DNA of 31,692 nucleotides from Zymomonas mobilis subsp. mobilis ATCC 10988 (GTDB lineage Bacteria > Pseudomonadota > Alphaproteobacteria > Sphingomonadales > Sphingomonadaceae): the NCBI RefSeq assembly GCF_000175255.2, contig NC_017181.1:1-31692 (forward strand), written 5' to 3'. Below, piece by piece: positions 1,050 to 25,841 of the stretch. Positions within the stretch are counted from its first letter, which is position 1. Each line of letters starts with the position of its first letter. The notes under the pieces were generated by a model. It saw only the letters and a program-made list of their open reading frames with translations, searched no databases and had not been told where the DNA came from. The position numbers were made by a program, and so were the translations under genes.

Positions 1050-1090
1050 ACCAGATTAAAATAAATATCCGGTAATTAAAAATACCGGAT
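1050..1090. repeat. Cluster 1 of ATC[C/T]GGTAAT-type half-sites
   Basis: Read directly: ACCAGAT 1050-1056 (reverse complement ATCTGGT), ATCCGGTAAT 1067-1076, AATACCGGAT 1081-1090. The last two form an inverted repeat abutting the stop of the 1090-1377 gene. Confidence 0.6.
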
Positions 1091-2036: not shown

Positions 2037-2056
2037 AATATGACCCTTTTAAAATT

Positions 2057-2097
2057 ATCTGGTATTTATATTAACCGGATAATTTAAATTATCCAAT
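2057..2097. repeat. Cluster 2 of ATC[C/T]GGTAAT-type half-sites in the parA/SDR divergent promoter region
   Basis: ATCTGGTA 2057-2064, AACCGGATAA 2073-2082, degenerate TTATCCAAT 2089-2097. CCGGATAATTT/AAATTATCCAA forms an imperfect palindrome. Confidence 0.55.
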
Positions 2098-2177
2098 AAT
2101 AAATGATTTTCAAACCATTTTGATGATAGGCATAATATACTTCGAGGATGAGGCCTAAGAAGTAAGGAATAATACGA

Positions 2178-2909: not shown

Positions 2910-2920
2910 AACCTTAATAA

Positions 2921-2964
2921 ATTACCGGATATTTTAAAATATCCGGTAATTATAAATATCTGGT
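2921..2964. repeat. Cluster 3: perfect 30-bp palindrome ATTACCGGATATTTTAAAATATCCGGTAAT (2921-2950) plus ATCTGGT (2958-2964) and a T-run
   Basis: Read directly. It lies between the convergent 3' ends of the SDR gene and TonB-dependent receptor 1, so it may also act as a bidirectional terminator hairpin. Confidence 0.65.
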
Positions 2965-3006
2965 TTTTTGAAAAATCTTTTAAAAACAGTGCGTTAAAAA
3001 TATTTT

Positions 3007-5247
3007 TTAGAGATCTGCCGTAATTGAAAATTTAAAAGTCTGTGGGGCGCCCATAATCAAATTGCTTTGATAAACGGAATCCCAATAGCGTTGATTGCCA
3101 ACATTATCTATTTCGATCCGTGCAGTAAGCGGCTTATTGCGAACAAGGAAGGTGTATCGCGCTCCCAAATCAAACCTTGACCATGCAGGTAGATGAGCGG
3201 TGTTTGCATTGTTAAATTGTTGCTTTCCTGTGCTGACTACTCGCCCAACAAAGGTCAGACCTTTGACAAAGGGAATATCATATTCGAGATTCCCATTAAT
3301 CGTATAATCTGGAACGCCAATCACGGTTTTTCCGTCGTAACTGCCTCCCGAACTTCGTATCTGTTTGGCATCAATCAGAGTTAGACCGCCATTAAATCGT
3401 AACCCGCGCCAAATTTTTCCATTAAATGTTAGCTCCATACCGCGGTTACGTTGTTTCCCGTCTTGGGTATAAATTAACAAGCCTGTATCCCCATAGGATT
3501 CTACCATCCCATAAGGCATTGCTGTCTGGTAAAAGGAGACGCTGGCAGAAAAACGGCCAATGTCATATTTTGCTCCGACTTCATACTGTGTGCTTTGATA
3601 GGGGGCAAAAGTCTGACCTGCATTAACATAGCTTGCTCCTACCGTTGTGCCTGCGGAAAGGCCTTGGATACGATTAAAATATACAGCAAAATATTTTATT
3701 GGATGAACCACTAATCCGACAACCGGAGAAATAACGCCCGATTCATACTGTGATTGAAGTTTACCTGTGCCATAAGCATAGGAATTGGACAGGATGTTTT
3801 GATAACGGAACCCGCCGGTGAGAGAAATGCGGTCATCCCAGAAATTCATCGTATCAGAAAAAAACAAACTATAGAGCTTGTTCATGGAAACTCGTCCCGG
3901 ATTTTTCATATTACCACTGGCATAGGTTTCATTCGGGGTAAATTGGATAGGGTTATAAATATTCCCTGCTTGGCCGACCAAACTCATGGCATAGGCAGCA
4001 TAGGATTCTTCCCAAATAGCGGATCCTCCTGCATTGATTTCATGCTTGATAAAGCCGGTTTTGAAATGGGCGCGAACACCGGCTTGAGTTGACTTATTAA
4101 GGACATTATAGGCCGTAGCCATCGCACCAACGCTTCCATCTCCTGTGTAAGAATTTTTTAAAGTCGTGGTGGCATAATTGCCTATTTCCTGACCACTCTG
4201 CGCTCCGAATTTACCATAAAGAGTGATATGGTCTCCAAAATCATGCTCTATATTCAGTGTACCGAATAAATAAGATAAATCGGTATAAGCCCATTTCTGT
4301 CCCCAATTTTTTGATGGAGAAGTCGTCTTTGGAACGGGCATATCTGTTCCAAGGCTGGAAACGATAATAGAACTACGCCCCCCAAAAACCTGTTGTTTCT
4401 GGTAGTTCATATTCATATCTATCCGCGTATCTTCATTATGCCAGTCAAAAGCACCGGCAATAGCAATATCGTCACGGCGTTCTCCTTTAATCGCTGTTCG
4501 ACCATTCATGCCTGCCGCATTAAAACGGAATCCATAAGCACGATCCTGACCAAATCTTCGACTTATATCGACCGCACCGCCACCTTGGCCATTACTGGTA
4601 TAATCGCCGGTAACCCGTGTTATATCTGTTGATGTCGCACGTTTGGGGACAAGATTAACATTACCGCCAATAGCGGATCCGCCGGGAGCCGCTCCATTTA
4701 AAAAAGCACTGGCGCCATTTAAAACTTGCACGGAGTCATAGAGCTGTGGAGAAACAAGCTGACGAGGTGTTACGCCATATAATCCATCAATCGCCACATC
4801 ATCACCATACAGGGTAAAACCCCGAATCTGGAAAAGCTGGGCATAATTTCCATATCCTGTTGTCGTCCTGACCGTTGGGTCATTAAGAAGAACTTCACCC
4901 AAGGTTTGAGCCTGCTGGTTCAAAATGAGGCTAGAATTATAACTGCGAATATTGAAGGGAACATCAAGGCCTTTTTTGTTGCCCAAGGCGCCCAAATCCC
5001 CACCACTTGATACATACATTCGATTGTTGCGAGAAGCTGTTACAATAAGATCTTCTTGTTTGGTAACGGCCGGAACGGTTTCTTCTTTTTTAAGATCAGA
5101 TGCTTTTGAAGAAAATAGAAGCGCATTGTTTCTGCTTTGTGATGTAGAATTTTCTGCCCATGCAGGGGTCGAAAGGAACACTGTTCCCATACCGGAAAGC
5201 AAACTGGATAGTCCGATGGTGTTCAGACAAAGCGCTCGAAAATTCAT
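3007..5247 (-). CDS. TonB-dependent outer-membrane receptor (siderophore-type)
   Basis: Plug-domain signatures (DLIVTASR; LFQIRGFTL) followed by a long Gly/Tyr/Asn-rich beta-barrel. I place the start at the internal Met (5247): it gives a signal peptide ending AWA and has AGGTGG 8-9 nt upstream. The ORF track extends to 5313. Confidence 0.88.
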   Translation of the reverse strand: MNFRALCLNTIGLSSLLSGMGTVFLSTPAWAENSTSQSRNNALLFSSKASDLKKEETVPAVTKQEDLIVTASRNNRMYVSSGGDLGALGNKKGLDVPFNIRSYNSSLILNQQAQTLGEVLLNDPTVRTTTGYGNYAQLFQIRGFTLYGDDVAIDGLYGVTPRQLVSPQLYDSVQVLNGASAFLNGAAPGGSAIGGNVNLVPKRATSTDITRVTGDYTSNGQGGGAVDISRRFGQDRAYGFRFNAAGMNGRTAIKGERRDDIAIAGAFDWHNEDTRIDMNMNYQKQQVFGGRSSIIVSSLGTDMPVPKTTSPSKNWGQKWAYTDLSYLFGTLNIEHDFGDHITLYGKFGAQSGQEIGNYATTTLKNSYTGDGSVGAMATAYNVLNKSTQAGVRAHFKTGFIKHEINAGGSAIWEESYAAYAMSLVGQAGNIYNPIQFTPNETYASGNMKNPGRVSMNKLYSLFFSDTMNFWDDRISLTGGFRYQNILSNSYAYGTGKLQSQYESGVISPVVGLVVHPIKYFAVYFNRIQGLSAGTTVGASYVNAGQTFAPYQSTQYEVGAKYDIGRFSASVSFYQTAMPYGMVESYGDTGLLIYTQDGKQRNRGMELTFNGKIWRGLRFNGGLTLIDAKQIRSSGGSYDGKTVIGVPDYTINGNLEYDIPFVKGLTFVGRVVSTGKQQFNNANTAHLPAWSRFDLGARYTFLVRNKPLTARIEIDNVGNQRYWDSVYQSNLIMGAPQTFKFSITADL

Positions 5248-5409
5248 AACAAAACCCACCTGATAGCCCTTTTTTGAAACGCATATCTTATTGGTAATAA
5301 TTTTCAATAGCACTTAATGATATTTAACTATTGGGTTATGATATATCATCAATTTAAATAATTATTATAATGAAACTGTAAAATCAGGCTGTTATGGATA
5401 TTAAAATTT

Positions 5410-5453
5410 ATCTGGTTTTTTAAATTACCGGATAAATAAAATAATCGGGTAAT
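5410..5453. repeat. Cluster 4 of ATC[C/T]GGTAAT-type half-sites
   Basis: ATCTGGT 5410-5416, ATTACCGGAT 5424-5433, ATCGGGTAAT 5444-5453. Located between the yafQ 3' end and the promoter region of TonB-dependent receptor 1. Confidence 0.55.
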
Positions 5454-5479
5454 CTTATATTTCGGACGCTTTTATGGCT

Positions 5480-5752
5480 CTACCCAAATAGTTCAGAATG
5501 GCTTCCCAAACGTACTAATTGAACATAATCATCGCCATTCTTCATATAAATTAGCACTAAATCCGGTTTTACATGGCAATCTCTAAAGCCAAGCCAATTA
5601 CCTGAAAGGGCATGATCTCTATATCTTGGCGGGAGTTCCAAATCTTGACAAAGGCAGTTTAAAATTTCTGCCCATGCGGGGGTAACAAACTCTAGAAAAT
5701 TCTTTTTAGCGTCTTTTTTGAATTGTTTTTCAAGCAAGACCTTACGCATCAT
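5480..5752 (-). CDS. yafQ: Type II toxin, YafQ/RelE family mRNA interferase
   Basis: 90 aa. Characteristic YafQ C-terminal half (HALSGNWLGFRDCHVKPDLVLIYMKNGDDYVQLVRLGSHSELF). Overlaps the upstream antitoxin gene by 11 nt. Confidence 0.85.
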   Translation of the reverse strand: MMRKVLLEKQFKKDAKKNFLEFVTPAWAEILNCLCQDLELPPRYRDHALSGNWLGFRDCHVKPDLVLIYMKNGDDYVQLVRLGSHSELFG

Positions 5753-6023
5753 GGTTCTCTTGTAATACTTTCAAGGCCTCTGCTGCCGTAAAGGCTTCCG
5801 AAAAATCAGTGCGCCTTAATGCCTCCAGCATCGCTTTTTGTGTGGTCGTATTGGGCTCATCTTTAGCATAATCGAAAGATAGCGGAATCGTTTTGGTCTC
5901 GGCCACTTGATTTAAAAATAACTTAAATGCCTGCGCTGCGCTTAATCCATAACGCTCTAATACCGGAAAGGCTCGATCCCGCAAATCCTGATCCAATCGC
6001 AGATTGAAACTTGTTGTCGCCAT
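5742..6023 (-). CDS. dinJ: Type II antitoxin, DinJ/RelB family
   Basis: 93 aa. N-terminal RHH pattern (SFNLRLDQDLRDRAFPVLERYGLSAAQAFKLFLNQVAETKTIPLSF) typical of DinJ. Sits directly upstream of yafQ. Confidence 0.85.
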   Translation of the reverse strand: MATTSFNLRLDQDLRDRAFPVLERYGLSAAQAFKLFLNQVAETKTIPLSFDYAKDEPNTTTQKAMLEALRRTDFSEAFTAAEALKVLQENHDA

Positions 6024-6085
6024 TTTTACACCTATTGATATACATTCATCATATATTTGCTACCAATAATACGCTGAATGTATAC

Positions 6086-6410
6086 TTATTTCAAATAAGA
6101 ATCACTGTATGATAGTCGTTTTTCAATAAAAGCTAGCATCCATTCAATGCATGAATAGACTGTATGAAATTCCGACCATTCCGCATGGAGGCCATCCATC
6201 AGAGATTGAGTGCTGTCGAATTTTTTTAATTTACTGGCGCGTGCGTCTGTCATAGCAATCAATGTCTTTTTGTTTGGAATCAAAGGATCAAAAGGCAGAG
6301 CTTTTTCTTGAACGACTTTTATCAGGCATCATGCGGACAGCATCAGATGCAGTCAGACCAAGGCTTTTGAAGAAAGCAGACGCTTCCTGTTTTAAGCCGA
6401 TGTGTCGCAT
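6086..6410 (-). pseudogene. Frameshifted orphan DinJ/RelB-like antitoxin
   Basis: The minus-strand ATG at 6410 gives MRHIGLKQEASAFFKSLGLTASDAVRMM, then a stop at 6288. Shifting one base near 6326 continues LIKVVQEKALPFDPLIPNKKTLIAMTDARASKL... (the 6086-6283 ORF). This restores a DinJ-like protein. No toxin gene follows it. Confidence 0.55.
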
Positions 6411-6518: not shown

Positions 6519-6983
6519 TTAAATCTCAGTATGGAATATCTGCGGTTGCGTCATCACAATAGGTAGTCTTTGCGCAAGCGATGATGCTATTTTTTGTTTA
6601 AGATTCCATGAGTCTGGGCTTCCGATTTCCATCGGAGCTAACAAACCAAGCAGCATTTTTCGGAGTTCTGTTTGAGTAGGTAATTTTACCGAGGCTTCCG
6701 TGCATTTTGCCTCAGTAATATTCTTTATTACCGAAGGCGTTGGATGATCTTCAAACGCGGCTGCTACAAAAGTTACCCATTCTGGGATACCCTTTGTCTG
6801 TCTATTTTCGAATGCAGATATAGTTTGCTGTTTTATATCTGATATTTTGCCACGAGCTTCTGCCGAGAGTTTGGCTTCTTTTGCTAATCTATTAGCACTC
6901 CATCCGCGAGAATTTCTTTCCTCACGGAGCCATTGCCGCACCTTTTCGATCTTTGTTGTTTCAGATGATGCATGTCTCGTCAT
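6519..6983 (-). CDS. XRE-like helix-turn-helix protein, tandem paralog 3 of 3 (operon order)
   Basis: 154 aa. Shares with the two upstream genes the N-terminal pattern R..R..R.W[ST]A..LA.EA...A..RG......KQQ.IS..E.......P.W and the C-terminal LLGLL.P.E......K..IA..LA..LP motif. Confidence 0.7.
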   Translation of the reverse strand: MTRHASSETTKIEKVRQWLREERNSRGWSANRLAKEAKLSAEARGKISDIKQQTISAFENRQTKGIPEWVTFVAAAFEDHPTPSVIKNITEAKCTEASVKLPTQTELRKMLLGLLAPMEIGSPDSWNLKQKIASSLAQRLPIVMTQPQIFHTEI

Positions 6984-7008
6984 AATATCTATTTATACCA
7001 AAAAGATA

Positions 7009-7518
7009 TTACTGAAACAAACTTATCTGTTCTAAGCCTTTTGGTAAGTGTTTTGCTAATACATTAGCAATTTGATGTTTTGATTCCAGAGAGACATCTG
7101 TCTCAACTGGAATAAGCAGTCCTAATAGCAAGTTTCTTAAAGCCTGTTGGTCAGGTATTTTTATTTTTTTTGAGCAAGTTTTAGTAATATTATGATTTTT
7201 TTGAGTAGTTTCTTCAATCTTTAATTCTTTGGAGGTTTCCAAACCAGCAATAGATACAGACGAGACCTCATTGATTGGGTTGTCTAGGAAAGATGCATTA
7301 ACATACTCAATCCAGTATGGAATGCTTTTTAATCTTCCCAGTTCTAACGCAGAAATTGACTGCTGTTTCAGATGTAAATCTACACCACGGTTTTTTGCAG
7401 CTTTACAAGCTTCTTGCGCTAAACGTGCAGCTGTCCAGTTGCGTAAGCACCGTTCTCTACGCATAGACTGGCGCATGGCCTCGAGTCTTTGGAATTCTTC
7501 TGGTGGAATTATTGTCAT
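7009..7518 (-). CDS. XRE-like helix-turn-helix protein, tandem paralog 2 of 3
   Basis: 169 aa. MTIIPPEEFQRLEAMRQSMRRERCLRNWTAARLAQEACKAAKNRGVDLHLKQQSISALELGRLKSIPYW aligns by eye along its length with 7546-8022. The gap to the next gene is 25 nt. Confidence 0.7.
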   Translation of the reverse strand: MTIIPPEEFQRLEAMRQSMRRERCLRNWTAARLAQEACKAAKNRGVDLHLKQQSISALELGRLKSIPYWIEYVNASFLDNPINEVSSVSIAGLETSKELKIEETTQKNHNITKTCSKKIKIPDQQALRNLLLGLLIPVETDVSLESKHQIANVLAKHLPKGLEQISLFQ

Positions 7519-7545
7519 AAAAGCTGTGATTATGCCAAAAGAATA

Positions 7546-8022
7546 CTATTCAAACAAAGATTGGCCGTGTTTTACCCCAATAGGCAATCTTTGAGAGAGA
7601 ATATCAGCAAGTTGTAATTTCGACTCCAGAGAATTCCCAATTTCTATCGGCCCTAGCAGTCCAATCAGAATTTTTTTTAATAGCGGGGGTTCCGGTAGTG
7701 CTAGAACCTTATCACACTCTTTTTTAAGGGCCTCACTTTTTTCATTTTGCGGTACTGATTGAAAACCTTCAATCTCAACAGGATTATCTTCAAATGCGTA
7801 TAATACGTATTTAGCCCAGACTGGTTCACTTTTCATTCTGCCAGTCTCGAGCGAGGTAATAGAGTATAACTTTAATTTTAGATCAATGCCCCGACGTTTA
7901 GCTGCTTTATTGGCCTCATCAGCCAGCTGTCGAGCTGTCCAATCGCGCATGCAGCGTTGTTGGCGAATGTTGAGTCTCAGTCGTTCTAATCTCTCAAATT
8001 CTATTTTGGGCATTATCGTCAT
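7546..8022 (-). CDS. XRE-like helix-turn-helix protein, tandem paralog 1 of 3
   Basis: 158 aa. MTIMPKIEFERLERLRLNIRQQRCMRDWTARQLADEANKAAKRRGIDLKLKLYSITSLETGRMKSEPVW, with a C-terminal LIGLLGPIEIG...LADILSQRLP motif shared with the paralogs. Confidence 0.7.
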   Translation of the reverse strand: MTIMPKIEFERLERLRLNIRQQRCMRDWTARQLADEANKAAKRRGIDLKLKLYSITSLETGRMKSEPVWAKYVLYAFEDNPVEIEGFQSVPQNEKSEALKKECDKVLALPEPPLLKKILIGLLGPIEIGNSLESKLQLADILSQRLPIGVKHGQSLFE

Positions 8023-9318: not shown

Positions 9319-11094
9319 ATGACCGCCTCTTTTTCCTCATCGTCTCATTTCGTGGCGTCATCTCCTATGTCTTCTTCACTTAATGCCGATCTGTCCTCTT
9401 CTGACTCTGCCTCTTCTGCAACCCTCTCCGCATCCTCTGTTCTTTCTCCAAAGCCCAATCTCGCGCCTGCCCCATTATCCGCTGAGTTGTCTTCTATGTC
9501 GCCTAACCTTGTATCGCCTTTGGAAGTTGCTGACTTATCCTTGCCGATCTCCGCTTCGTCTTCGCTATCCTTGGCTTCTCCATTACGTGCTACCATCTTA
9601 CCAGATTCTTCTACAGCTCCATTACCTTCATCTCCCTCCTCTATGTCTTTTGAAGGTAGCCCTTTTGTGGACAGGTTGGGGCGTTTCAAGCGCGGCACTT
9701 ATCGTTCAATGCTGATGCAGACGGGAATGTCCTACGACCATGCAAAAGACATGGCTGATCTCGCTGCTGAGGAATTTAAAAACGCCAAAAAAAGGGAGCC
9801 TGTCGGTGCGACATATGACCGCCAATCACCTCCCTTGGCCAATAGCGCTAATCCCGAAATTCCGGCCTCAAATACCAATCGTGAGGTTACCGCCCCCGCA
9901 TCAGAAGCATTCGACGAAATCGAATATTTTGACCAGATGGTTTCAAACGGCGTTGATCCTGAAACCGCTGCCGATATTGCCCGTAAAACAGCTATTGCAA
10001 GACGTAGAGATCCTCTCGAAAGAGCCACCCGCAATAAAACACGTCGTCGGACTCCTGATCCTGTCCACCGTGACTCTTATGAGGTGGGCGAGCGCGAGAA
10101 GTCGGTCTGGAAGCCGGTCAATCCGCAAGAGATCGGTGCCTATCTGGAAGCGGTCGATCAATATTCGATCAAAACCAAGGGCTTAAGCGATAAGGCCGTT
10201 CGCCTTTTAAAGATGCTGTTTCGGATGGTCGACTTTAAAACTGGCCGTCTGGAGCCAACCCTCGACACAATATGCGATCGTGTCGGCTATGCCCGTGCGA
10301 CGGTCGTTAAATTACTGCGGCAATTACAGGATTTAGGCTTCATCCGCTGGATACGCCGATCAATCAAGATCAAAGCGGATGGCAAAGGCCCCCGCCGCAA
10401 GCAGACCAGTAACGCCTACGGCTTCTTGTCTCCCAAGGCTTGGCCAGAGTTGGCCAGACAGGTTTTCGAGCGTGTGATGCGCCGGAGGAACGCACCTATT
10501 CCTGACGATATCGACCACGCCCAAGAGGCGGACAAAGCCGAAACCAAGGCTATCGTTGAAAGCTTGCCGCCCGAAGATTTCGTCAAAGCGATATCGGGCG
10601 ATAAAGAGCCAACAGAGTTAACAGATTCGTTAATACAGCTCGCCAAATCTATCGAGCGTGCTGAACAACGGGAACAGGAAGAGCAGGTTAAGAAGGCAGC
10701 ACAGGCTGACCAAGAAGGGGTTAAAACACCTTCCCAAACACCTAAGGAGGATACCTCAAAAAAACCCCTAATCTCGGACAATCAACGCGAGTTCAATTCT
10801 TATACTCTATCCTGTTATACTTATTTATCTAATAGCAACCATACAAAACTAAAAACCAAAGAAGAAAATAAGGACTGCACTGATCCTGCTACCACAGACA
10901 GTGCAGATACTATTTATGATCGAAAAACTGACAACGATCCTTTCCTCTTAACTCTTAAAGCTCGCGGTTATCGTCTCGATCAAATCACAGCTTGCCTAAA
11001 TCACAGAGATAAACGGAAAAAGAACAGATGGATGCCTCTGTCACCGGACGAAACCGCCCGCCTCCTTATACAAACAAGACAGATGAAACCCTGA
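9319..11094 (+). CDS. Plasmid replication initiator-like protein (winged-helix) with Ser/Pro-rich N-terminal extension
   Basis: Start placed at ATG 9319 (GGAG at 9307-9310), downstream of the terminator. The ORF track start at 9202 would read through that terminator. The central segment AVRLLKMLFRMVDFKTGRLEPTLDTICDRVGYARATVVKLLRQLQDLGFIRWIRRS looks like the wHTH of alphaproteobacterial plasmid Rep proteins. The family was not verified by search. Confidence 0.65.
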   Translation: MTASFSSSSHFVASSPMSSSLNADLSSSDSASSATLSASSVLSPKPNLAPAPLSAELSSMSPNLVSPLEVADLSLPISASSSLSLASPLRATILPDSSTAPLPSSPSSMSFEGSPFVDRLGRFKRGTYRSMLMQTGMSYDHAKDMADLAAEEFKNAKKREPVGATYDRQSPPLANSANPEIPASNTNREVTAPASEAFDEIEYFDQMVSNGVDPETAADIARKTAIARRRDPLERATRNKTRRRTPDPVHRDSYEVGEREKSVWKPVNPQEIGAYLEAVDQYSIKTKGLSDKAVRLLKMLFRMVDFKTGRLEPTLDTICDRVGYARATVVKLLRQLQDLGFIRWIRRSIKIKADGKGPRRKQTSNAYGFLSPKAWPELARQVFERVMRRRNAPIPDDIDHAQEADKAETKAIVESLPPEDFVKAISGDKEPTELTDSLIQLAKSIERAEQREQEEQVKKAAQADQEGVKTPSQTPKEDTSKKPLISDNQREFNSYTLSCYTYLSNSNHTKLKTKEENKDCTDPATTDSADTIYDRKTDNDPFLLTLKARGYRLDQITACLNHRDKRKKNRWMPLSPDETARLLIQTRQMKP

Positions 11095-11644
11095 TACCGA
11101 TAGCTATCCTTCTCAAAACATACCACCCGTTAATCTCTCGGCGCTGCTCGCTTCGCTCACAAGCTTGGCGAATAAAAATCCGCCTTTCGGTAGGGCTATC
11201 TAATTCCTAAAAATCCGTATTGTTTCAAAAGAGTTTCTCTAATTATAGTAAGCGGTACCTTGTCTTTCATTTCATAAAATTTTTTCAGAGAAATATCGGA
11301 AAACTAGGGATGCAAGATTGTCATCACTCTTTTTTTTCCGTCAAAGTTTTCCGTTTACTTCTATTTGGCAATTTCGACCAGAATCATTCAATATCAATCA
11401 CTGGCCGAAAATCACCTGTATATTGAGCATCTTCGAATTTCCAACTGGAATGTTGGGATTAGGTAAACGCATCTAGGGGGTAAGCAGAAAGTCGGCTGTT
11501 GGGCAGCATGACCACCCAACCGGACATCCTTGTGAACTACTTTTCTAACGGCTTTACGTAACTGTTCAGTTATTCGGGGCAACTTACGTTGCTCCTAAAA
11601 CCGATATTTGTCATTTCGACAACCAAATAGGCTAATATCAATGA

Positions 11645-14164
11645 TTATTCAGATCGTCCCTTTTTGTAGGACTGAATCGTTTCAATCTCTTTGTTCAGGG
11701 TCTCTCGATCCAAATTAGAAAAGAACTTTACATCCTGATAAATATTTCTTGCACTATCAAAATCGCCTATATTGAGGTAATAATTTGCTTCCAATTGAAG
11801 AAACGGCCTATAGTTTGCTCGTAAATCGAATGTAGATCGGTCCATGACGATTCTGCGAGCAATATTTATTTGCTCGATTGCCCGGGAAAAGTTTCTATCC
11901 TTAAGAAGTATCTTTGCATAGAGTTCTAAAGGCGCAAAAAGAGAAGGAGTTTTCTTGAGAGCCTCCAGCACCAGCCTAAGCGCTTCTCGGTTATCTCCAT
12001 AAAAATATTCTATTTCAGCTAATCTCGTTGCATGGAAAGAGCGTCCTTCCTCCTCATCTAACTGTTGGAGAGAATCGAGAAGCTCCAGAACCTCAGGATC
12101 CCGCTTGCAAAGCTTCTTTTTGTTCCTGATTAGGCAAGAAATAAAAATATCGATAATGAAAGGGTTAGCCTTAGCAGCTTCATACGCCTCGCGTGCGTAA
12201 GATTCTGCTTCCTCCGGAAGGTCAAGACTTAAGCACACAGATGCAAGTTCGCGCGACGTAGCACGATTGGTCTGCGATAGTTTATACGCGGAAATCAGTG
12301 TTTCGCGTGCTTCTGTCAGTTTGCCTTGAAGGCGAAGGTTGAAGCCGTTTAGGAAATGTACGATAGCTTCAGACGCATCGTCATCTGCTAAATTTTTCAG
12401 TTGTGTGATACCGAAATTGAACGTTGATTGATCATTGATGCGAGCGGCAGCTAAGCCTAGGTAACGGCAAGCGGCGATAGCACCGGATCTTGATAGGCGA
12501 CCGTGTCCCTCAATTGCTTCTCGCGCCATTCGTATGGCGTCTTTCCATCGTCGTGCATCGTAGTGTTTTTTAGCAAGCCAAACACGATGCGAAGGCAGTA
12601 TAAAAGCTTCCATAAGCTTCGACGTGGGCTCATCCCTTTCAAGAGTCATCAAGATCGCCGATTCGAGAAGCGTGATAGGTGCTTCGCCATCCTCGATGCG
12701 TAATTCCAAAGATCTTGAAAGGGAACGCATTATTCGAGTCCTTTCCTGACTTTTGAGCTCAGTTCTTGGATCGCGTTCAGACGCAATTCTTAAAGCGGGT
12801 GAAATCGAAATCCTCTCATCTTCAACACGAACGATATTCAGATCGAGCATTTTTTGAACTGATCCACTGATCTCAGAAGAGTCTACTTCGGAGAGAACGT
12901 CAGATAAGGATGTGAAATCAAGCTCTGGAGCAATGGAAAATACAGATAATATTTTTAGATCAAGGCTATTTAAATTAGCTGATCTTAGGTACTCTGAAGT
13001 CTGCTTATGTTTCCATTCGATGAAATCTCGAGGATTACTGAGGAATAGATCAACGGATGTCTCCGACACCAGATCGACCATACGATATATATTGAATGGA
13101 TGCTGATCTGCGATATCGACCAGTTTCTCTAGTTGCCCCGACTTTACCCTCACATCACACTCTTTGAGTAATCCCGTGATCAAACGCTCAGTATCCTCTC
13201 TAGTAAGAGCGGATACGCTTAGGTATGCCAAGTCATCAGCGGCTCTGCGTAGCCGCTTTGGGATCATTCTAGGTGATATAAACACTACAGGAGGATGTGG
13301 CCTATCTACAACTCTATCCAAAATGCTTTCAATCTCGGGTTGAAAAGAACCATCCTCACGAAGGACGCCGCCGCCATCAAATACGTATAAAGTTTCTCGA
13401 TCATGGACAATTTCATTGATCTTATCAGCGATTATCTGCGACTTTCGTTTATTGTCTGCATTTTGAAAGCCTTCGATAAGGTCTTTAAGATCCGGAATTG
13501 ATATACTTGGGTTTAGCGATGATATAATAGCCCTGTAAATATCATCATACCCGTCAAAATTATCAAGTTCAACAGTTGGTGGTATTGCGCCAATCTCTGG
13601 ATATTGGTTCTGGAAAAACTTTTTGGCTACCGTCCTACGACCCGAACCAGAATTTCCTGAGACATACAATGCCTTAATTCGAGGTTTATCTAGGTTGTTT
13701 GCTTGCTTTTCAAGAATCTTTAGCTCTGTTTCACGACCAACAAACGGATGAGATTTTATTCTTTTAGAGTGATTCGAAGATATAAGTTTACCTTCAATCA
13801 ACCTAGCGGTACTTTCGGGGCTGCTTGAGCGACGCACCATATTATAGTGTTTTATGAAGTCTTTAGCACTATTAAAAACGTCTTCGTCCAAACAAATCGT
13901 CAGGACACGACTTATTTTCCCACTCGCAATCAGTTCTCTACTGAAGGCAATTTCAAAATTTACGTATCCAGAATTCAGTGCATCTTTCGATAGGAATAGG
14001 CAGAATAGGTCGCAGCGATTTAGCGCCTTTAAGATTTCGTCGGAGTTCAATCCTCCTTCGTCAAAGGTCTGTGAATCAAATTCGTAATTCCCAGGACGCA
14101 AATTATCTTTAACTGCTTGTACATAGCCTTTATCTTTTGACGAGTGAGATAGAAATGCACGCAT
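11645..14164 (-). CDS. TIR domain / P-loop STAND NTPase / TPR-like repeat protein (bacterial NLR-like, Avs-type architecture)
   Basis: Start at internal Met 14164 (GAGG 6 nt upstream). N-terminal TIR (MRAFLSHSSKDKGYV...LFCLFLSKDALNSGYVNFEIAF, conserved Glu present). P-loop YVSGNSGSGRRTVAKKF and Walker B-like TLYVFDGGG. The C-terminal ~330 aa are helical TPR-like repeats. Confidence 0.85.
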   Translation of the reverse strand: MRAFLSHSSKDKGYVQAVKDNLRPGNYEFDSQTFDEGGLNSDEILKALNRCDLFCLFLSKDALNSGYVNFEIAFSRELIASGKISRVLTICLDEDVFNSAKDFIKHYNMVRRSSSPESTARLIEGKLISSNHSKRIKSHPFVGRETELKILEKQANNLDKPRIKALYVSGNSGSGRRTVAKKFFQNQYPEIGAIPPTVELDNFDGYDDIYRAIISSLNPSISIPDLKDLIEGFQNADNKRKSQIIADKINEIVHDRETLYVFDGGGVLREDGSFQPEIESILDRVVDRPHPPVVFISPRMIPKRLRRAADDLAYLSVSALTREDTERLITGLLKECDVRVKSGQLEKLVDIADQHPFNIYRMVDLVSETSVDLFLSNPRDFIEWKHKQTSEYLRSANLNSLDLKILSVFSIAPELDFTSLSDVLSEVDSSEISGSVQKMLDLNIVRVEDERISISPALRIASERDPRTELKSQERTRIMRSLSRSLELRIEDGEAPITLLESAILMTLERDEPTSKLMEAFILPSHRVWLAKKHYDARRWKDAIRMAREAIEGHGRLSRSGAIAACRYLGLAAARINDQSTFNFGITQLKNLADDDASEAIVHFLNGFNLRLQGKLTEARETLISAYKLSQTNRATSRELASVCLSLDLPEEAESYAREAYEAAKANPFIIDIFISCLIRNKKKLCKRDPEVLELLDSLQQLDEEEGRSFHATRLAEIEYFYGDNREALRLVLEALKKTPSLFAPLELYAKILLKDRNFSRAIEQINIARRIVMDRSTFDLRANYRPFLQLEANYYLNIGDFDSARNIYQDVKFFSNLDRETLNKEIETIQSYKKGRSE

Positions 14165-15204
14165 GTGAACCTCGAAATTAATTTGAGCTATTATTAAAAA
14201 ACAATCTATATAATCCAAGTCGAATCGCAAGCTGCTTACTGAATCCTGGCGTTAGACTGTGAGTTATTTCTCCCTCACACCCCTCGAAGTTGTAATTGTC
14301 TATCGGTGCTGAACTTCTGACAAACAATGTTCGCGATGTGGAAAGCTACTTGGGCGACTGCTGCCTATCTTATTCCACATTCCTGAACAGGCAGGTGGAT
14401 CTGGGGTGGAAAGTAATCTGTTTTCTTTAGGCAAATACCACTTGAAAGCGGAGGTCTCCGCTAATGCAGGAGCGGTTCAATATTCCTTTGTCAACAGAAA
14501 CTGGTCAATCTGCAGAAACGGGAAGAATGGCTGAGTAGGCAGTTTGAGGTCCAAAACCAGGGTCGTCAGAGGTGGATTTATGAATGGAAGGAAAGACACC
14601 GACCTGTGAAAGAACAGGCTCATCGCGACATGTCCCTGTTTTGATTTCTGTCCGACAGCAAGCCGTTTTCTGCCGAGCATATAGAATTTAAGAAACTGGC
14701 ATCACAAATGTATCTTAAGGACAACTTGTTAGGGGTAATCCAGAAGCTTAGAAAGAACGAAAGACATAGTCAATTTGGAATGCCATGAGTTTACCAATAA
14801 GGCTGTTCTTAAAAGAATCCGTAGATAGAAGACCACCGATGCTGGACCAGTGATACTGCTAGACTGCGCGTGGAGTTTCTTGATCAGCATCTGACGTCTG
14901 GACAGATACAACTTGATGTTAAAAAGCCAATGAATTTTTCATGGAAAAGTTAAAATTTGTCTTAAAGGATCGCAAGAAAAAACCATTTTTCCAATCTATG
15001 CCGTTGACATATCCAGAGATCGAATGATTGAAAATCTAATATCCAATCCCGGGTTATTCGATCCCTCGAACTAATACAACACCATTAACCCCGGGATTAA
15101 AGATGTAAGAATTCTTGAACAATATACTATAAGAAAAATGTGGGAAATATTACCTATTTTCTATATTTTTCATTACCTTTTTATTATTTTATAATATACT
15201 TTAC

Positions 15205-17919
15205 TTAATTACCACCTATATTCAAGCTCTGATCAAACACTACAGCAATCCCTGGCATCGAACGATTGGCTGTCAGGCCAACGTCAAATATTTGTCGCAG
15301 TTCATAACGAAGCTTAAATTGACGACCCGATTTTTCTAAGAGATCAAATAAAATATTGTATGATCCATACTTCAAAAGCTTTTGAAAATTTTCGTCTATC
15401 ACCGTATTAAACACTAAATCCAAATCGGTTTCATTTTCAGGCTCGCTTATAGCCTCCTCTCGACTATGAGATGCCATGATGCAAGTCCCTGCAGACATCT
15501 CATCAAAGTAAAATCGCAAATCAAGGTCATTAATGGTTGCCCAACGATATTCAGCTCTCCGAGATCCACCATGGAGTATAGGGAGAAAAATATCATCACG
15601 CTGGAATAGTATTGCCTTGAGAGTTGATAAATCAATCGTTGATCCGTCAAAGTATCCTATAGGCAGCGTAAGGGGGTCACCCCCAGCCCAGTACACAGCT
15701 CGAGCAAGTTCCACCTTTTCTATAACTGAAAGTGCTCCGTTTATTCCGACTTGAGCCTGATTTGTAGCCCATTGAGCTAAAGACTTTGGCGATATGGAAA
15801 GTTGAGCTGCTCCTCGAGTCGCTATAGCCGCTTCACCTTCTATAATACCAATATAAGAGGGGACTTGGCTATTGCTGGAGTGCCCAGCTAATAATTTTGT
15901 CCTTACTGGATAGGTTAGACCTCCGACGCGGGCAAAAGACATCATCTCCGATCGTAAATGTCGTGAGTTCAACTGTATTGCTGCACGGCCAACTAAGCGA
16001 CCATCATCATTTTCAATAGGTGTAACAGCTTCTGAATATAGGGTCACATAGTCTGTCTCCGAATGATTTTGATCATTCGTCAAATCTTTTATGAATTCCT
16101 CAGAAGAACGCGAACTCCAATTAGCAGCGTGAGTAAAAGAACGACTGGCAACTTTGTCTACAAATTCAATTTCAACTGCACTAGATGCAGTAAGCCAGCG
16201 GAGATAACTGAATACGTCTGAATGGAATATCCCCGATAAAAAATTTGTCACTTTAGGATGTTTTAAAGTATTATTCTGGGGCAGAAAACCATTAATAGCA
16301 ACTTGATCTGTTACAGCAATCGAAATTCGGGTTGTATATATATCGCTCTGCTCAGATTCTGCCGCTTTTCTCAATATCGGCCGTCTTGTTAGACCGACAA
16401 ATTCTAGCGCCAATCCATTCCCAATGCCGTCCTTGTACCGTCGGGTAACTACTGTAACCTCGTCTCCAAGTAGAAATACCGAGAAAAATCCAATCCCGAA
16501 TTTTCCCGAAATATTTACAGATGCCACACTTATCTCTGGGTTCTCTTGAGCAACATCTTCCGACTTCCAGCCAGACCTGCCAAAATCCAAAAGCCGTCGA
16601 GTAAGTACGCGCTCTGACATACCGATTCCATTGTCTTCAACAATAAGTCTGAGTTGTCCCGTTTCACTTCGCTCCAGCGTGCACCGAATACGCGGAATAA
16701 AACCCTCCCGACCGATACTAGCTCTTAACAAAGTTGCATCTATAGCATTTTGAAGCAACTCCCGGAGCGGCGCATGATAACCATTACCATACAAATTTCG
16801 ACCGCCAAGTGTTTGCGCAAGACTAATAGGATCAGTAACTCGCACTTCGGCATCCACTGGCTCCCAACCGTCGCAATGAACATATTTCGCAAACAGTTTT
16901 GGTCTTTGTGTACCTTCTACTTTCTTTGCAAAAAATTCTTCTGTATCAGATTCTTTAAGTAAAGATGCTGCAGATTGCAGCTCATCTGAAATCATCCGGC
17001 AAGTATCGAAGCAGAGCCACCAAGCGTCGGCTTCAGATCTGCCAAAATCTCTTCCAGAATTGTATATAAGAGCTTGATCACCTCGAGACGGGATACCCAG
17101 TCTATTCTGAAACCCCCAGTGTAACGCTGAAACTCCTTTTGGAGAAGAGAGAATATAGTCCATAAGTGGAGCTCGACGATTATCAATATGTGCAGCATCG
17201 GCACAACGCAACAGTATAGCAATCTTAAGTTCGTTTAATTCCCATTCTGCAGGCAGACTTGGTGGTGGTGCGCGACGTGTCAAGAACTCATGGGCAAGGC
17301 GGTCTACATCCCAATGGTGGCTCTGCGCTATCCGCCCAATTATTTGACCATAATAATCGCGAAGCTCGGTATCTTCAATAATATAGATTACACTCGCAAT
17401 ATTAGGTCTACTCCATTCACGTTCAACCATCTTTACGGCCTGTTTTGCATGCAGCCCTCGGACCGTGGAAAATAAGGCTATGCGCTCGAATTGCCTTCTT
17501 TGATCTTTTGAAAGAGAATTTTTGTCTATTCGTGGCAAGGCTGTCATTTGCGCCATAGCACGTTGCCATTCTGCTGTCTTTTTTAGCCCGTCTAGACCAT
17601 CTTCATACGCAACCACAGCAAGGGCACTGTCATGGAATAAAACGCTGCATCCGAATATGAAGGCTTCTAACGGGTTCAAAGGATAATTATCACCCGCTAT
17701 GATATCCGCAAGTTGCCATAACGCGTCTAAATGACTTTCGTCATGAATTGTGAGGCCTTGACAATCAATATGAGCCTGCCGAACTATCGGCTTGATTCGG
17801 TCATGCGCCGTCTCAAAAGTACTCCTTAACGTCGCTAAAGCACTTTCTTCTCGGGGATTGCCCCCCGTCATACCAATCGTTCGTTTCCACAAGGTCGTTT
17901 CGTCGTATCTAATCGCCAT
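15205..17919 (-). CDS. HD-type phosphohydrolase-like domain fused to a GHKL (Hsp90/MORC/histidine-kinase-like) ATPase plus an unassigned C-terminal region
   Basis: About 904 aa. ATG at 17919 with GGAGA 7 nt upstream; the ORF track uses TTG at 17922. His/Asp motifs in the N-terminal ~250 aa: IHDESH, LFHDSA, GLHAKQ, SHHWD, CADAAHID. Bergerat-fold motifs: N-box LRELLQNAIDAT, G1 IVEDNGIGMS, G2 GKFGIGFFSVF. I recognise no family for residues ~500-905. Confidence 0.85.
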   Translation of the reverse strand: MAIRYDETTLWKRTIGMTGGNPREESALATLRSTFETAHDRIKPIVRQAHIDCQGLTIHDESHLDALWQLADIIAGDNYPLNPLEAFIFGCSVLFHDSALAVVAYEDGLDGLKKTAEWQRAMAQMTALPRIDKNSLSKDQRRQFERIALFSTVRGLHAKQAVKMVEREWSRPNIASVIYIIEDTELRDYYGQIIGRIAQSHHWDVDRLAHEFLTRRAPPPSLPAEWELNELKIAILLRCADAAHIDNRRAPLMDYILSSPKGVSALHWGFQNRLGIPSRGDQALIYNSGRDFGRSEADAWWLCFDTCRMISDELQSAASLLKESDTEEFFAKKVEGTQRPKLFAKYVHCDGWEPVDAEVRVTDPISLAQTLGGRNLYGNGYHAPLRELLQNAIDATLLRASIGREGFIPRIRCTLERSETGQLRLIVEDNGIGMSERVLTRRLLDFGRSGWKSEDVAQENPEISVASVNISGKFGIGFFSVFLLGDEVTVVTRRYKDGIGNGLALEFVGLTRRPILRKAAESEQSDIYTTRISIAVTDQVAINGFLPQNNTLKHPKVTNFLSGIFHSDVFSYLRWLTASSAVEIEFVDKVASRSFTHAANWSSRSSEEFIKDLTNDQNHSETDYVTLYSEAVTPIENDDGRLVGRAAIQLNSRHLRSEMMSFARVGGLTYPVRTKLLAGHSSNSQVPSYIGIIEGEAAIATRGAAQLSISPKSLAQWATNQAQVGINGALSVIEKVELARAVYWAGGDPLTLPIGYFDGSTIDLSTLKAILFQRDDIFLPILHGGSRRAEYRWATINDLDLRFYFDEMSAGTCIMASHSREEAISEPENETDLDLVFNTVIDENFQKLLKYGSYNILFDLLEKSGRQFKLRYELRQIFDVGLTANRSMPGIAVVFDQSLNIGGN

Positions 17920-18116
17920 CAATCTGTCTCCAAATTATAGCCTTTTAGCATGGAATCTCGTCCGAACGCAGCTTCAAAAACGATAGTTTTGCGCTAGCCA
18001 GATTGAATAATAAGGTCGGCAACGATATCTGTATTCTTAGGAATCAATGAGATAATTAGTTGAAATTCAACTCCAAGCTATCAAGCAGCCAGTCGTCAGT
18101 TTATCATCTCCAACAT

Positions 18117-18154
18117 AAAAAAATTGGCATATACTGCTCTTCTTTATGCCAATT
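18117..18154 (-). terminator. Terminator-like hairpin reading on the minus strand, upstream of the HD-GHKL gene
   Basis: AATTGGCATA (18122-18131) pairs with TATGCCAATT (18145-18154), with a 13-nt loop. On the minus strand the hairpin is followed by a T-run (A7 at 18117-23 on the plus strand, whose last two bases also belong to the stem). The stem is AT-rich, so strength is uncertain. Confidence 0.4.
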
Positions 18155-18243
18155 GTGAATTCTATAACGCAATGTTTCAAAACTCATAACCTGAGGCTAC
18201 GCCACTCGCATTCTACGAAAAATGATTTTGCCCTGTTTGGAGT

Positions 18244-18394
18244 GGTAATCCCACCCAAGCCCTCGGCGTAGAGGTGTCGCTTTTTATGCATTTTCTGATC
18301 TTATGCAGGACAGCCATAAATAACCTAGAATACGGCCTTAAGATAGCTTTATTCAATGAAATACGGCCGAAAATCTCTTATGCATATTTATGCA
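18244..18394. repeat. Non-coding module A: conserved leader (GGTAATCCCACCCAAGCCCTCGGCG...TGTCGCTTTTT) followed by TTATGCA x4 and (A)ATACGGCC x2
   Basis: TTATGCA at 18284, 18301, 18378 and 18388. ATACGGCC at 18330 and 18361. The first ~67 bp align at roughly 78% identity by hand with module B. Confidence 0.6.
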
Positions 18395-18955
18395 GCCTTG
18401 TCTATTGGTAGCTTCCCTTGTTTTCCTGTTAAAATACCCCTTGTTTCTCAAAAGCTATGTCCTCTTTTTTATCCTCGGGATTGGGCTTCAGTTAGCTATC
18501 GGCAGAGGAGTTAAAAAAGAGAGAGTGTGAGAAAAATAAGACCGGTATAATTATAGCAATCAGCTAGTAAGAAGGCTCAGGGAAATGCAATGGAATATAC
18601 AGGCTGGATAGAAGTTTGGATCTTTAACTGTTTGGTAAATCAGTCCTTCATTACAGAAGAAGATTCTCCATCATCCATTTTTAGTCAAGGCTTATGGACA
18701 GAAGATTGTAAGCCCAAAAAGCATTAGGATGTCTTCTCAGAGTAAAATATTTCCTCTTCTTGGTCCACTGGTCATATACCTTCTTTCTTGCTGTAGAGGG
18801 CTCTCTGGGCAGATAGCTTTTAGCTTTTGGAAAGGTATATCTCTTAACTATAGCCGATGAAATGGATCAATTCTTTTTAAAGAAGCAGTATCAAAACCCA
18901 TCAGTTGATATAAAAATATCAAGAGAGGTGTTTTTTTGTTATACTCTTAGCGTCC

Positions 18956-19130
18956 GGTTAACCCACCCTAGCCCCCGCGCTATACATGTCGCTTTTCTAC
19001 GCAATTTCTGATTCAACGCAAAATAAAAAATATCGCGTAAAATAGCCTTTAAAACACAAATTTTTTTACAAAAGTGCCTATTTTTACTGTTCGCAAATAA
19101 ACGCATGCTCAACGCATTTTGTAAAACGTA
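18956..19130. repeat. Non-coding module B: homolog of module A leader (GGTTAACCCACCCTAGCCCCCGCGC...TGTCGCTTTTC) followed by [T/A]ACGCA repeats
   Basis: TACGCA 18998-19003; AACGCA 19015-19020, 19100-19105 and 19111-19116; AAACGTA about 19125. TTTCTGAT is shared with module A. Lies immediately downstream of the decayed parG-like gene. Confidence 0.6.
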
Positions 19131-19165
19131 AAAAAGATGCCAAAAAATGCTTATTTTCTCAAAAC

Positions 19166-19397
19166 CTAGACGAACTTTTCGGCTAAAATTTCATGGACTA
19201 GAGTGATCATCATTTCCCTTCATCCATGGCCTGAAGTTTCAGCTTTCTATGAATGTCTGCAGGTATAGACAAAAACGATTTGTCTTTTCTGCGTTATCAT
19301 CAGCGTTCCACTTTGCGACCCACTAATCAACATCAGATGGCTTTTTAACGGCACGCGACGGGCACGTTAAGCTGATTGAAGATGCTGTTTTGGTCAT
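19166..19397 (-). pseudogene. Decayed ParG/RHH-like partition gene (multiple frameshifts/stops)
   Basis: The minus-strand ATG at 19397 overlaps the parA-fragment stop and gives MTKTASSISLTCPSRAVKKPSDVD*. Compare MSNNAFSIDLSRLKKQPK of the intact gene at 1377. Other frames give ...KSFLSIPADIHRKLKLQAMDEGK* and MMITLVHEILAEKFV*, together an RHH pattern broken by frameshifts. Confidence 0.45.
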
Positions 19398-19560
19398 AAT
19401 GAAGCCCCTAACTCAAGTAATTCATTTTTAATGGCTGTGATCTTATCGGCCACAAAATTACGTTTATCTGGATAATCGAATACCGACAGGCCATCCAATG
19501 CGCTCTCGGCAAAGCGGACACGCTGTGATAGCTGACTATTTAATAGAGGTAGCTGATGAC
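19394..19560 (-). pseudogene. 3' fragment of a second parA gene, truncated at the IS boundary
   Basis: The last ~55 codons of ORF 19394-19720 read LPLLNSQLSQRVRFAESALDGLSVFDYPDKRNFVADKITAIKNELLELG, a typical ParA C-terminus. Upstream of 19560 the ORF runs into IS sequence, and no N-terminal ParA part exists beyond the IS. Confidence 0.6.
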
Positions 19561-20177
19561 TAGGTTTTGTTGACAAAGGGTATAATTTAAGATTTTTAGA
19601 GATAAATTGAGAACAAGTTTTGTAGGGCAGACAGGATGCAAGGAGATCTGACGGACGCGGAATGGCAAATAATAGAGGGTCTTCTTCCAAGCGAACGAGG
19701 CCGTTGCGCACGTCCCGCAAAAAGCAATCGGTTATTTCTTAATGGTATGCTTTATGTACTTCGAACAGGCTGCCCGTGGCGAGATATGCATGAACGTTAT
19801 GGGAAATGGAATTCGGTCTATGTTCGATTTCGTAGGTAGGCGGAACAGGGTGTCTGGGATGCTCTTTTTGAAACCATAGTTGAGGGTGACTGAATAGATA
19901 GGACCATCATGTGCGCTTACAATCAAGCGGCTGGCGCAAAAGGGAGAATCTCAAGGAAGGCTTTGGTCGAAGCCGCGGTGGCTTTACGAGCAAGATCCAC
20001 GCCCGTTCCGATGGTCAGGGCTGGCCTCTAACTTTCGAACTAACAGGCAGTGAGGTCTCTATTATTCTGATGCCAATAGCTTGATAGAGATTCCTGCCGT
20101 AGCACTACGACGTTTTCTCACTTTTTTATCTCGCGGCTATAAAATGGTGGCTATCTTCTATGTGTTAACAGAACCTA
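19561..20177 (+). mobile_element. Defective IS5-family insertion sequence (IS427/IS1031-like) with nonsense, frameshift and internal deletion
   Basis: Terminal inverted repeats TAGGTTTTGTTGACAAA (19561-) and TGTGTTAACAGAACCTA (-20177), matching 14/17. Transposase N-terminus MQGDLTDAEWQIIEGLLPSERGR...NGMLYVLRTGCPWRDMHERYGKWNSVYVRFRR, then TAG where Trp is expected (19837-19839). A frameshifted GFGRSRGGFTSKIHARSDGQGWPLTFELTG follows. The DDE core is missing and a C-terminal FSLFYLAAIKWWL remnant remains. At 617 bp it is shorter than the roughly 0.8-0.9 kb I would expect for this IS group. Confidence 0.75.
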
Positions 20178-20374
20178 AGCTTCTGGATATTTTCCTAATT
20201 TATAGAAAATGCTGTCGTAGATTTTTAATTTGATATATTTTAAGGATTATCTTTAAAGTATCATATGGTTACAATATCATTTAAATATATATTTATTAAA
20301 TTAGATGCTTGTAATTATATAAAATACAATATTACTATTGCCGGAATAATATATAATTACAGGAATGGTATTCA

Positions 20375-21559: not shown

Positions 21560-21725
21560 TTGAGACGGATTTTTCTGAATATATCGGAATTAGGGGATTT
21601 GCGATTAGATTAGAAATAGAAAAGAGCCGTATAACGCCAGGGCTTAAAGTAAGTGATACGCTATGTCAGGTCATTCGAAATCGCTCAATTTTTCTGCCTT
21701 TTCCGATAGTTTAATCATCGTCTGT

Positions 21726-21759
21726 AAGGATAGGATAGCATCAGTGCCATCCTATCCTT
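21726..21759. terminator. 11-bp-stem hairpin between convergent genes (possible bidirectional terminator)
   Basis: AAGGATAGGAT (21726-21736) pairs with ATCCTATCCTT (21749-21759), with a 12-nt loop. No clear U-tract on either strand. Confidence 0.4.
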
Positions 21760-21769
21760 GATTGGTGGA

Positions 21770-25821: not shown

Positions 25822-25841
25822 GTTTTATTTGATATTTTTGT

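Follow-up and report, generated by a model that had tools for sequence, protein, structure and literature searches.

Sequence comparison identified a plasmid gene of Zymomonas mobilis as a distant, full-length member of the TIR-NLR family, a known family that has been validated in anti-phage defense. The gene occupies positions 11645-14164 on the minus strand of the 31,692-nucleotide stretch analyzed here (Z. mobilis subsp. mobilis ATCC 10988, contig NC_017181.1), which we call the window. We consider it likely that its product is an NLR-like sensor that acts as a single protein of the TIR-NLR family, in which sensing by the TPR region would lead to oligomerization, cleavage of nicotinamide adenine dinucleotide (NAD+) by the TIR domain (NADase activity), and abortive infection. 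Ethanol is produced industrially with Z. mobilis, and the ease of engineering this species is influenced by its native plasmids and defense systems; the gene adds a TIR-NLR to its plasmid-borne defense repertoire. The general picture of bacterial NLR-like immunity is unchanged by these findings.

Family membership and integrity of the gene

The protein was searched with the PADLOC models, as had been proposed in an earlier reading of the window made from its letters (the original prediction). There was a single strong match, to the TIR-NLR model PDLC03015 (E = 5.8e-44, 149 bits), and it ran from end to end, with residues 2-829 aligned to model positions 3-819 of 824. Among 5.8 billion proteins searched, 121 relatives were found, and the majority were about 835 amino acids (aa) long and colinear with the window protein. 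They came mainly from Alphaproteobacteria, among them Bombella (74% identity), Seohaeicola, Paracoccus, Rhizobium, and Komagataeibacter. An alignment and profile, designated A1, was built from 39 relatives. When A1 was run against 1.84 billion cluster representatives (50% identity clusters), 790 clusters from many phyla were found at E<=1e-30; together with the PADLOC score, this excludes a chance match. The best match among the GTDB species representatives was a Seohaeicola protein (67% identity), and distant colinear relatives with 22-30% identity were present in GTDB species genomes of Beta-, Gamma-, and Deltaproteobacteria, Firmicutes, Bacteroidota, Acidobacteriota, and Cyanobacteria. In PLSDB, no other plasmid encoded a close relative; the best match was 25% identical.

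In the PDB, the A1 profile matched entries 9M0N and 9UMD from end to end (residues 2-827, E = 5e-95). These were deposited as a "Tetratricopeptide repeat protein" of 824 aa, and the printed stretches of the 9M0N chain are identical over ~400 residues to the TIR-NLR of Klebsiella pneumoniae SB5442 (construct pFR90) in supplement file 3 of Rousset 2022. Pairwise alignment of the window protein with the Klebsiella protein was colinear over residues 1-828, with 24% identity and E = 2e-42. The Klebsiella TIR-NLR is encoded by one gene from a P4-like satellite defense hotspot, blocks many phages, and is active as a single cloned gene in E. coli (Rousset et al. 2022, PMC9122126). Full-length membership in a family validated in this way argues for the NLR/Avs-like anti-phage function that the original prediction had put forward. 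The same prediction had suggested that a TIR plus TPR protein with an atypical P-loop may form a distinct clade, and this suggestion was not supported, given the full-length match to the family and the presence of the P-loop Arg in 70 of 71 family members (see below). The hoped-for novelty is not there, because standard defense-finding tools would label the gene TIR-NLR. The gene is a new, divergent, plasmid-borne member of an already described family.

Pfam, PADLOC, and A1 bore out the predicted order of a TIR domain, a STAND NTPase, and TPR repeats, the boundaries of which are given in Table 1. Besides the full-length PADLOC match, profile hits included Pfam TIR_2 over residues 4-96, above its gathering score (E = 4.5e-10); AAA_16 over residues 140-190, below its gathering cut-off (E = 5.5e-6); and TPR_14, TPR_16, TPR_2, TPR_12, and TPR_19 within residues 524-800. 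A search of NCBIfam with the protein gave nothing specific. Structures were modeled with AlphaFold for the full-length protein (mean predicted local distance difference test score, pLDDT, of 85; predicted template modeling score, pTM, of 0.79) and for its nucleotide-binding oligomerization domain (NOD) alone (residues 135-472, pLDDT 92). In the full-length model residues 471-839 were all-helical, with pLDDT mostly 85-96. The winged-helix part resembled winged helix-turn-helix chains of the MarR/Lrp type in a profile search (E = 2e-4).

The models were also used to classify the NTPase. With Foldseek, the best match of the full-length model was PH0952, an archaeal STAND-TPR protein (6MFV, E = 1e-10), followed by SAMD9; TPR proteins were matched as well. 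The best structural matches of the NOD-only model were plant NLR resistosomes (G10, NRC4, Sr35, RPP1, Roq1, and WRR4A), CED-4, Apaf-1/Dark, and two archaeal STAND-like ATPases, with template modeling (TM) scores of ~0.55-0.63. NACHT proteins were absent from its top 50 structural matches, and no Pfam NACHT match was seen at E<=0.1. These matches place the predicted fold of the NTPase nearer to the NB-ARC/AP-ATPase-like type than to NACHT. The choice among NACHT, NB-ARC, and AP-ATPase types, which the original prediction had left to be made, thus probably falls on the NB-ARC/AP-ATPase side, but the Pfam NB-ARC profile itself gave no match to the window protein. The HHpred label given to the Klebsiella prototype was NB-ARC/AAA_35 (PMC9122126).

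The gene is intact. The uninterrupted minus-strand open reading frame (ORF) extends from 11645 to 14230, and the ATG at 14164 gives a product beginning MRAFLSHSS, as do all 38 of the 38 homologues aligned in A1. Because the homologues begin at the equivalent position and a GAGG lies 5 nucleotides upstream, this ATG was taken as the true start, which makes the originally predicted 11645-14164 the true coding sequence including the stop codon. An identical protein is recorded in NCBI assembly GCA_006716005.1 (contig VFOI01000005.1) and in two independent read sets. The window protein retains each of the 36 columns that are invariant in A1. In comparison with an 86%-identical homologue, the ratio of nonsynonymous to synonymous substitution rates (dN/dS) was 0.22 overall, with values of 0.03 for the TIR, 0.22 for the NOD, and 0.29 for the TPR part, showing that the gene is under purifying selection. 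The terminator scan gave a result no better than shuffled sequence, and an Rfam scan of the window had no matches.

At only three aligned positions did the protein differ from the branch consensus (at least 80%), and one of these was residue 443 in the winged helix (12836-12838). This residue is Asn in the window protein and in its two closest relatives and His in 33 of the 38 branch members, in the motif L-H-I/V-V; the position is variable in the wider TIR-NLR family.

The predicted TIR active site and the variant P-loop

The closest solved TIR outside the family was that of Cat1 (A1 profile against the PDB, E = 2e-9). Residues S6, H7, D30, S65, and E71 of the window protein aligned to S7, H8, D33, S68, and E74 of Cat1. 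The NADase site of Cat1 is composed of S7, H8, N9, N10, D33, S68, and E74 of one TIR and of K121 and Y122 of the neighboring TIR, and Ala substitutions of N10, D33, S68, E74, K121, or Y122 abolish Cat1-dependent growth arrest in vivo (PMC12162218). The residue E71 (codon 13952-13954) is the Glu of VNFEIAF (residues 68-74), for which the original prediction had proposed a catalytic position; the alignment to Cat1 E74 bore this out. Site counts here and below were taken over 71 TIR-NLR family sequences from many phyla. S6, H7, and E71 were each conserved in 71/71, and within A1 D30 was invariant and S65 at least 90% conserved. The best-supported reading is a predicted NAD+-cleaving site that would depend on TIR-TIR contact. 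Two features thus marked the family in this survey: the five Cat1-like residues of the NADase site were conserved throughout, and an Arg-Arg Walker A was a near-universal signature.

The P-loop of the window protein is G170-N-S-G-S-G175-R176-R177-T178 (13631-13657, minus strand). The other STAND motifs are FVGRE (F141, G143, and R144), the Walker B Asp D263, and the sensor-1 Arg R299; FVGRE, G175, R176, and P356 were invariant in A1. R176 was placed at the position of the Walker A Lys, and R177 at that of the Mg-binding Ser/Thr, because of profile alignments with PH0952 and Cdc6. In these alignments the family Walker A, G-i-G-R-r-t, stood opposite G-I-G-K-T-S in PH0952 and G-T-G-K-T-A in Cdc6. 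The remaining family motifs and their PH0952 counterparts were vidkgG and IIDDF for Walker B, isPR and ITTR for sensor 1, and gHPfN and GHPLM for GxP.

At the Walker A Lys position Arg was present in 70/71 sequences and Lys in one. The Ser/Thr position was R in 58, K in 6, S in 5, N in 1, and T in 1. The Walker B Asp was kept in 64/71, and G175, R144, and P356 in 71/71. The P-loop of the Klebsiella TIR-NLR is GVGRRS. Thus the atypical P-loop noticed in the original prediction is real (G-x-G-R-R-T), but it is not specific to a clade, being family-wide and present in the validated Klebsiella protein. The only sequence with a Walker A Lys was the Pseudomonas serbiensis homologue (match 10001-12145), which has GIGKRR and in the alignment lacks the Walker B Asp (LIFYN).

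These residues suggest that the nucleotide switch is probably non-hydrolytic; the module may bind nucleotide without turnover or may act without one. Since the pocket-forming residues are kept and the catalytic ones lost, the pattern would fit a nucleotide held without hydrolysis. Walker A Lys-to-Arg mutants of RecA and Rad51 still bind ATP and have lost hydrolysis. Plant NLRs require the Walker A Lys, and the change from Lys to Arg is a classic loss-of-function mutation there. It is possible, although we hold it only tentatively, that the whole TIR-NLR family is a natural "P-loop-dead" NLR whose prototype defends nevertheless. If so, oligomerization with a permanently bound, unhydrolyzed nucleotide, or with none, would make a one-way immune switch and break the plant and animal NLR rule of an essential P-loop Lys.

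Somewhat more doubtful is a nucleotide-independent scaffold, in which a STAND pseudo-NTPase would bind no nucleotide and the ligand alone would drive oligomerization. The near-universal Arg at the Walker A Lys position points this way, as do the mixture of Arg, Lys, Ser, Asn, and Thr at the Mg-binding position and the residue after the Walker B Asp, which is acidic in only 33/71 sequences and Gly in the window protein. So does the precedent of another Avs protein, KpAvs8, whose degenerate Walker motifs were taken as loss of ATPase (PMC13581612). Yet the pocket itself is retained (the P-loop Gly, the Walker B Asp, the GxP Pro, and the GRE Arg), an invariant Arg instead of random drift points to a retained phosphate contact, and the Lys-to-Arg mutants of RecA and Rad51 still bind ATP. 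The family-wide Arg-Arg P-loop is the most interesting loose end of the analysis; it concerns the whole TIR-NLR family, and the question it raises has probably been answered already by the deposited 9M0N and 9UMD structures.

The plasmid and its variable slot

By megablast, the window matched only Zymomonas mobilis plasmids. Positions 21717-31692 and 1-6195 are contiguous in pZA1002 (98% identity); because both window ends adjoin there, the window is a complete circular 31.7-kb plasmid, and the whole of it corresponds to contig VFOI01000005.1 (31,691 bp) of the assembly mentioned above. The backbone includes genes for ParA, an AraC regulator, a short-chain dehydrogenase/reductase (SDR), two TonB-dependent receptors, ABC transporters, a lipase, a YafQ/DinJ pair, a GapR-like protein, and a helix-turn-helix (HTH) replication-region protein. 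A variable slot (window 11189-20183, compared with 20964-39286 in pZA1002) separates the HTH replication-region gene from the lipase gene. In pZA1002 the slot holds RelBE, a complete type I-C CRISPR-Cas system, and fragments of the insertion sequence (IS) IS5, and its content in pZZM404 is unrelated, consisting of hypothetical genes and gene fragments. Because the contents differ among the three plasmids, we regard the slot as a hotspot for defense cargo: one plasmid slot, with the same two genes at its borders, exchanges defense genes. In this defense slot of a Z. mobilis plasmid, the TIR-NLR gene is carried as mobile cargo. Both the plasmid location and the accessory island flanked by decayed mobile DNA, as originally described, were confirmed, the latter by the absence of the insert from the sister plasmids and by the IS5 remnants (Table 1).

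Table 1. Coordinates of the TIR-NLR gene, its domains, and surrounding features in the window
Feature	Coordinates	Strand	Basis
TIR-NLR coding sequence, complete, 839 aa plus stop codon (11645-11647)	11645..14164	-	ORF list, PADLOC match
Shine-Dalgarno-like GAGG, 5 nucleotides upstream of ATG 14164	14170..14173	-	direct sequence reading
TIR domain, residues 1-112	13829..14164	-	Pfam TIR_2, Cat1 alignment, family conservation
Linker helix, residues 113-139			AlphaFold models
STAND nucleotide-binding domain, residues 140-320	13205..13747	-	A1, PH0952/Cdc6 profile alignment, NOD model
Helical domain, residues 321-388 (GxP-type motif H355-P356), and winged-helix domain, residues 389-470	12755..13204 (together)	-	model secondary structure
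TPR-like alpha-solenoid, residues 471-839, presumed sensor	11648..12754	-	Pfam TPR, model, Foldseek
Insert absent from pZZM404 and pZA1002 (TIR-NLR gene, IS5 remnant, HD-CE/GHKL gene)	11189..17986		blastn, sister plasmid annotations
Decayed IS5-family transposase fragment, between both cargo genes	14817..15044		67% identity to Acetobacter IS5 transposase genes
HD-CE/GHKL protein, 905 aa	15205-17922	-	Pfam HD-CE (E = 1e-49) and GHKL/Hsp90-like ATPase domain
IS5 transposase remnants, right side of slot	19560..20122		match to pZA1002 IS5 fragments
23-nucleotide IS-end-like inverted repeat	14485-14507 paired with 19557-19579		87% complementary

The second cargo gene of the insert encodes an HD-CE/GHKL protein, which had no PADLOC family match; a literature search for HD-CE returned only unrelated medical abbreviations. 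The protein has more than 1000 homologues, mostly alphaproteobacterial and annotated merely as "HD domain-containing" or "ATP-binding". Its homologues occur alone; one is beside a NaeI restriction-modification system, Vsr, a resolvase, and an integrase, and another is cargo of an integrase/DUF3987 element. We regard the protein as a candidate uncharacterized single-gene defense protein. The 23-nucleotide inverted repeat brackets its gene, with the right arm coinciding with the start of an IS5 fragment and the decayed IS5 lying just inside the left arm; a truncated transposase ORF is found at 19636-19839. Because the repeat and the IS5 fragments bracket the HD-CE/GHKL gene, separate IS5-mediated events may have brought in the two cargo genes.

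No relatives of the HD-CE/GHKL protein were found in 83 loci carrying TIR-NLR homologues. The Bombella TIR-NLR orthologue stands by itself, flanked by mutS and a GAF gene, and other close homologues likewise had no common partner gene. From the lack of a conserved partner in the 83 loci and from the solitary Bombella orthologue, the TIR-NLR is read as a single-gene system, as in Klebsiella. A PADLOC scan of 145 ORFs flanking homologues at 39 loci recognized pAgo with its SIR2 partner, NERD+UvrD, DpdF, Hachiman HamA, PD-Lambda-1, PDC-S02, PDC-S03, a type II restriction enzyme, mad8 (three times), and PbeA (twice). Such neighbors are consistent with defense islands.

Two other groups of genes were noted in the window. 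At 5480-6023 (minus strand) is a pair matching the YafQ toxin and RelB-DinJ antitoxin genes at the equivalent site of pZA1002. Three consecutive ORFs of 154, 169, and 158 aa at 6519-8022 (minus strand) are partly conserved in the sister plasmids and had no Pfam or PADLOC match.

Proposed mechanism and comparison with known systems

The best explanation is the mechanism that Rousset et al. proposed for the prototype, to which the alignments add residue-level support. The C-terminal TPR solenoid and the STAND module would keep the protein monomeric or autoinhibited until infection, when binding of a phage-made protein to the TPR domain would be followed by oligomerization driven by the STAND module. 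This would bring the N-terminal TIRs together, forming composite NADase sites between neighbors. NAD+ would be cleaved and depleted, and the infected cell would no longer support phage replication (abortive infection).

Several points weigh against this mechanism. The window protein belongs to a mainly alphaproteobacterial sub-branch and is 24% identical to the validated Klebsiella protein; anti-phage function is attributed to that branch by analogy, through family membership. For the window orthologue, the activities against phage and on NAD+, like its trigger, its oligomeric state, and its use of nucleotide, are predictions. For the prototype too, NADase activity was only proposed (PMC9122126). 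The standard ATP-dependent oligomerization step may not apply to a protein with an Arg-Arg Walker A and a Gly after the Walker B Asp. The primary paper for PDB 9M0N/9UMD was not found in the literature searched by PDB code and protein names. A promoter scan of the gene was at chance level, with 11 sites found and 8.7 expected, and the scan of homologue neighbors had no background control.

Other explanations would assign the protein a different activity or a partner. It is improbable, in our judgment, that the TIR serves in signaling, making an NAD-derived messenger (as with ThsB, type IV Thoeris/caspase-like) that activates an effector encoded elsewhere. Sequence alone cannot distinguish TIR chemistries, and there is weak ThsB-type similarity (PADLOC ThsB, E = 9e-4; Pfam ThsB_TIR, E = 0.095, below cut-off); however, no partner gene is conserved beside the homologues, the validated prototype functions in E. 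coli when cloned as one gene, and the best-matching solved TIR, Cat1, depletes NAD+. We find it still harder to credit a role in the host that is unrelated to phage, either as a silent relic or in plasmid competition or addiction, where it would kill cells on gain or loss of DNA. Although the gene is on a plasmid with toxin-antitoxin genes beside it, shows no promoter above chance, and has N443 in place of the prevalent His, its frame is intact with a good ribosome-binding site, all of the invariant columns are kept, the dN/dS ratios are low (above all in the TIR), and the same protein was recovered in two independent read sets. Least credible of all, and in our view very unlikely, is a two-gene system with the adjacent HD-CE/GHKL ATPase. 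The two genes share a strand and the same ~6.8-kb plasmid-specific insert, but they are 1 kb apart with an IS5 remnant and an IS-end repeat between them, and HD-CE/GHKL homologues occur alone elsewhere; the two-gene hypothesis was rejected because there was no co-occurrence in the 83 loci.

The nearest characterized relative is the Klebsiella SB5442 TIR-NLR (Rst_TIR-NLR; PDLC03015; 9M0N/9UMD), which has the same domain order and a similar length (824 aa compared with 839 aa) and is colinear over residues 1-828. Common to the two proteins are the FLSHSS...E TIR motifs, FVGR, the G-x-G-R-R-[ST] P-loop, and the TPR tail, and both are encoded by single genes that are cargo of mobile-element hotspots. 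They differ in their setting, an alphaproteobacterial plasmid here and an enterobacterial phage satellite in Klebsiella, in sequence (24% identity), and at the position after the Walker B Asp, where the window protein has Gly and the Klebsiella protein has Asp.

The Avs/AVAST proteins (Gao et al. 2020, 2022; Lee et al. 2026, PMC13581612) follow the same logic of effector, STAND module, and TPR-like sensor. In the Avs families, binding of a conserved phage protein by the sensor leads to oligomerization (PMC13581612). The window protein differs from them in having a P-loop without Lys, and no PADLOC model for the Avs families, including Avs1-5, matched it at E<=0.1. Identity with Avs7, a sensor of capsid protein that has other effectors, was rejected, and so was identity with Avs8, which is PD-lambda-4 (Lee et al. 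2026, PMC13581612). Thoeris (ThsB plus ThsA) was rejected as well, the ThsB matches being weak and no ThsA-like neighbor being present.

Other likenesses are those of predicted fold. The plant TIR-NLR resistosomes (RPP1, Roq1, and WRR4A), CED-4, Apaf-1, and Dark match the NOD model (TM 0.55-0.63) at an identity of ~11-15%; the plant TIR-NLRs share the order of TIR, nucleotide-binding oligomerization domain, and repeats, but their repeats are leucine-rich repeats (LRR) whereas those of the window protein are TPR. PH0952 of Pyrococcus horikoshii (6MFV) ranked first among full-length structural matches, and it alone among STAND proteins outside the family was found by sequence profile; its FVGR, P-loop, Walker B, TTR/SPR, and GHP motifs align with those of the window protein. 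Unlike the window protein, it is archaeal, lacks a TIR effector, has a canonical GIGKT P-loop, and is not known as a defense protein. For the effector, the closest comparison is the CRISPR-associated TIR NADase Cat1 (9MUD; PMC12162218), in which five active-site residues are matched. The two differ in their switch: Cat1 forms filaments and has a CARF domain through which cyclic tetra-adenylate switches it on, whereas in the window protein the predicted switch is the STAND-TPR module.

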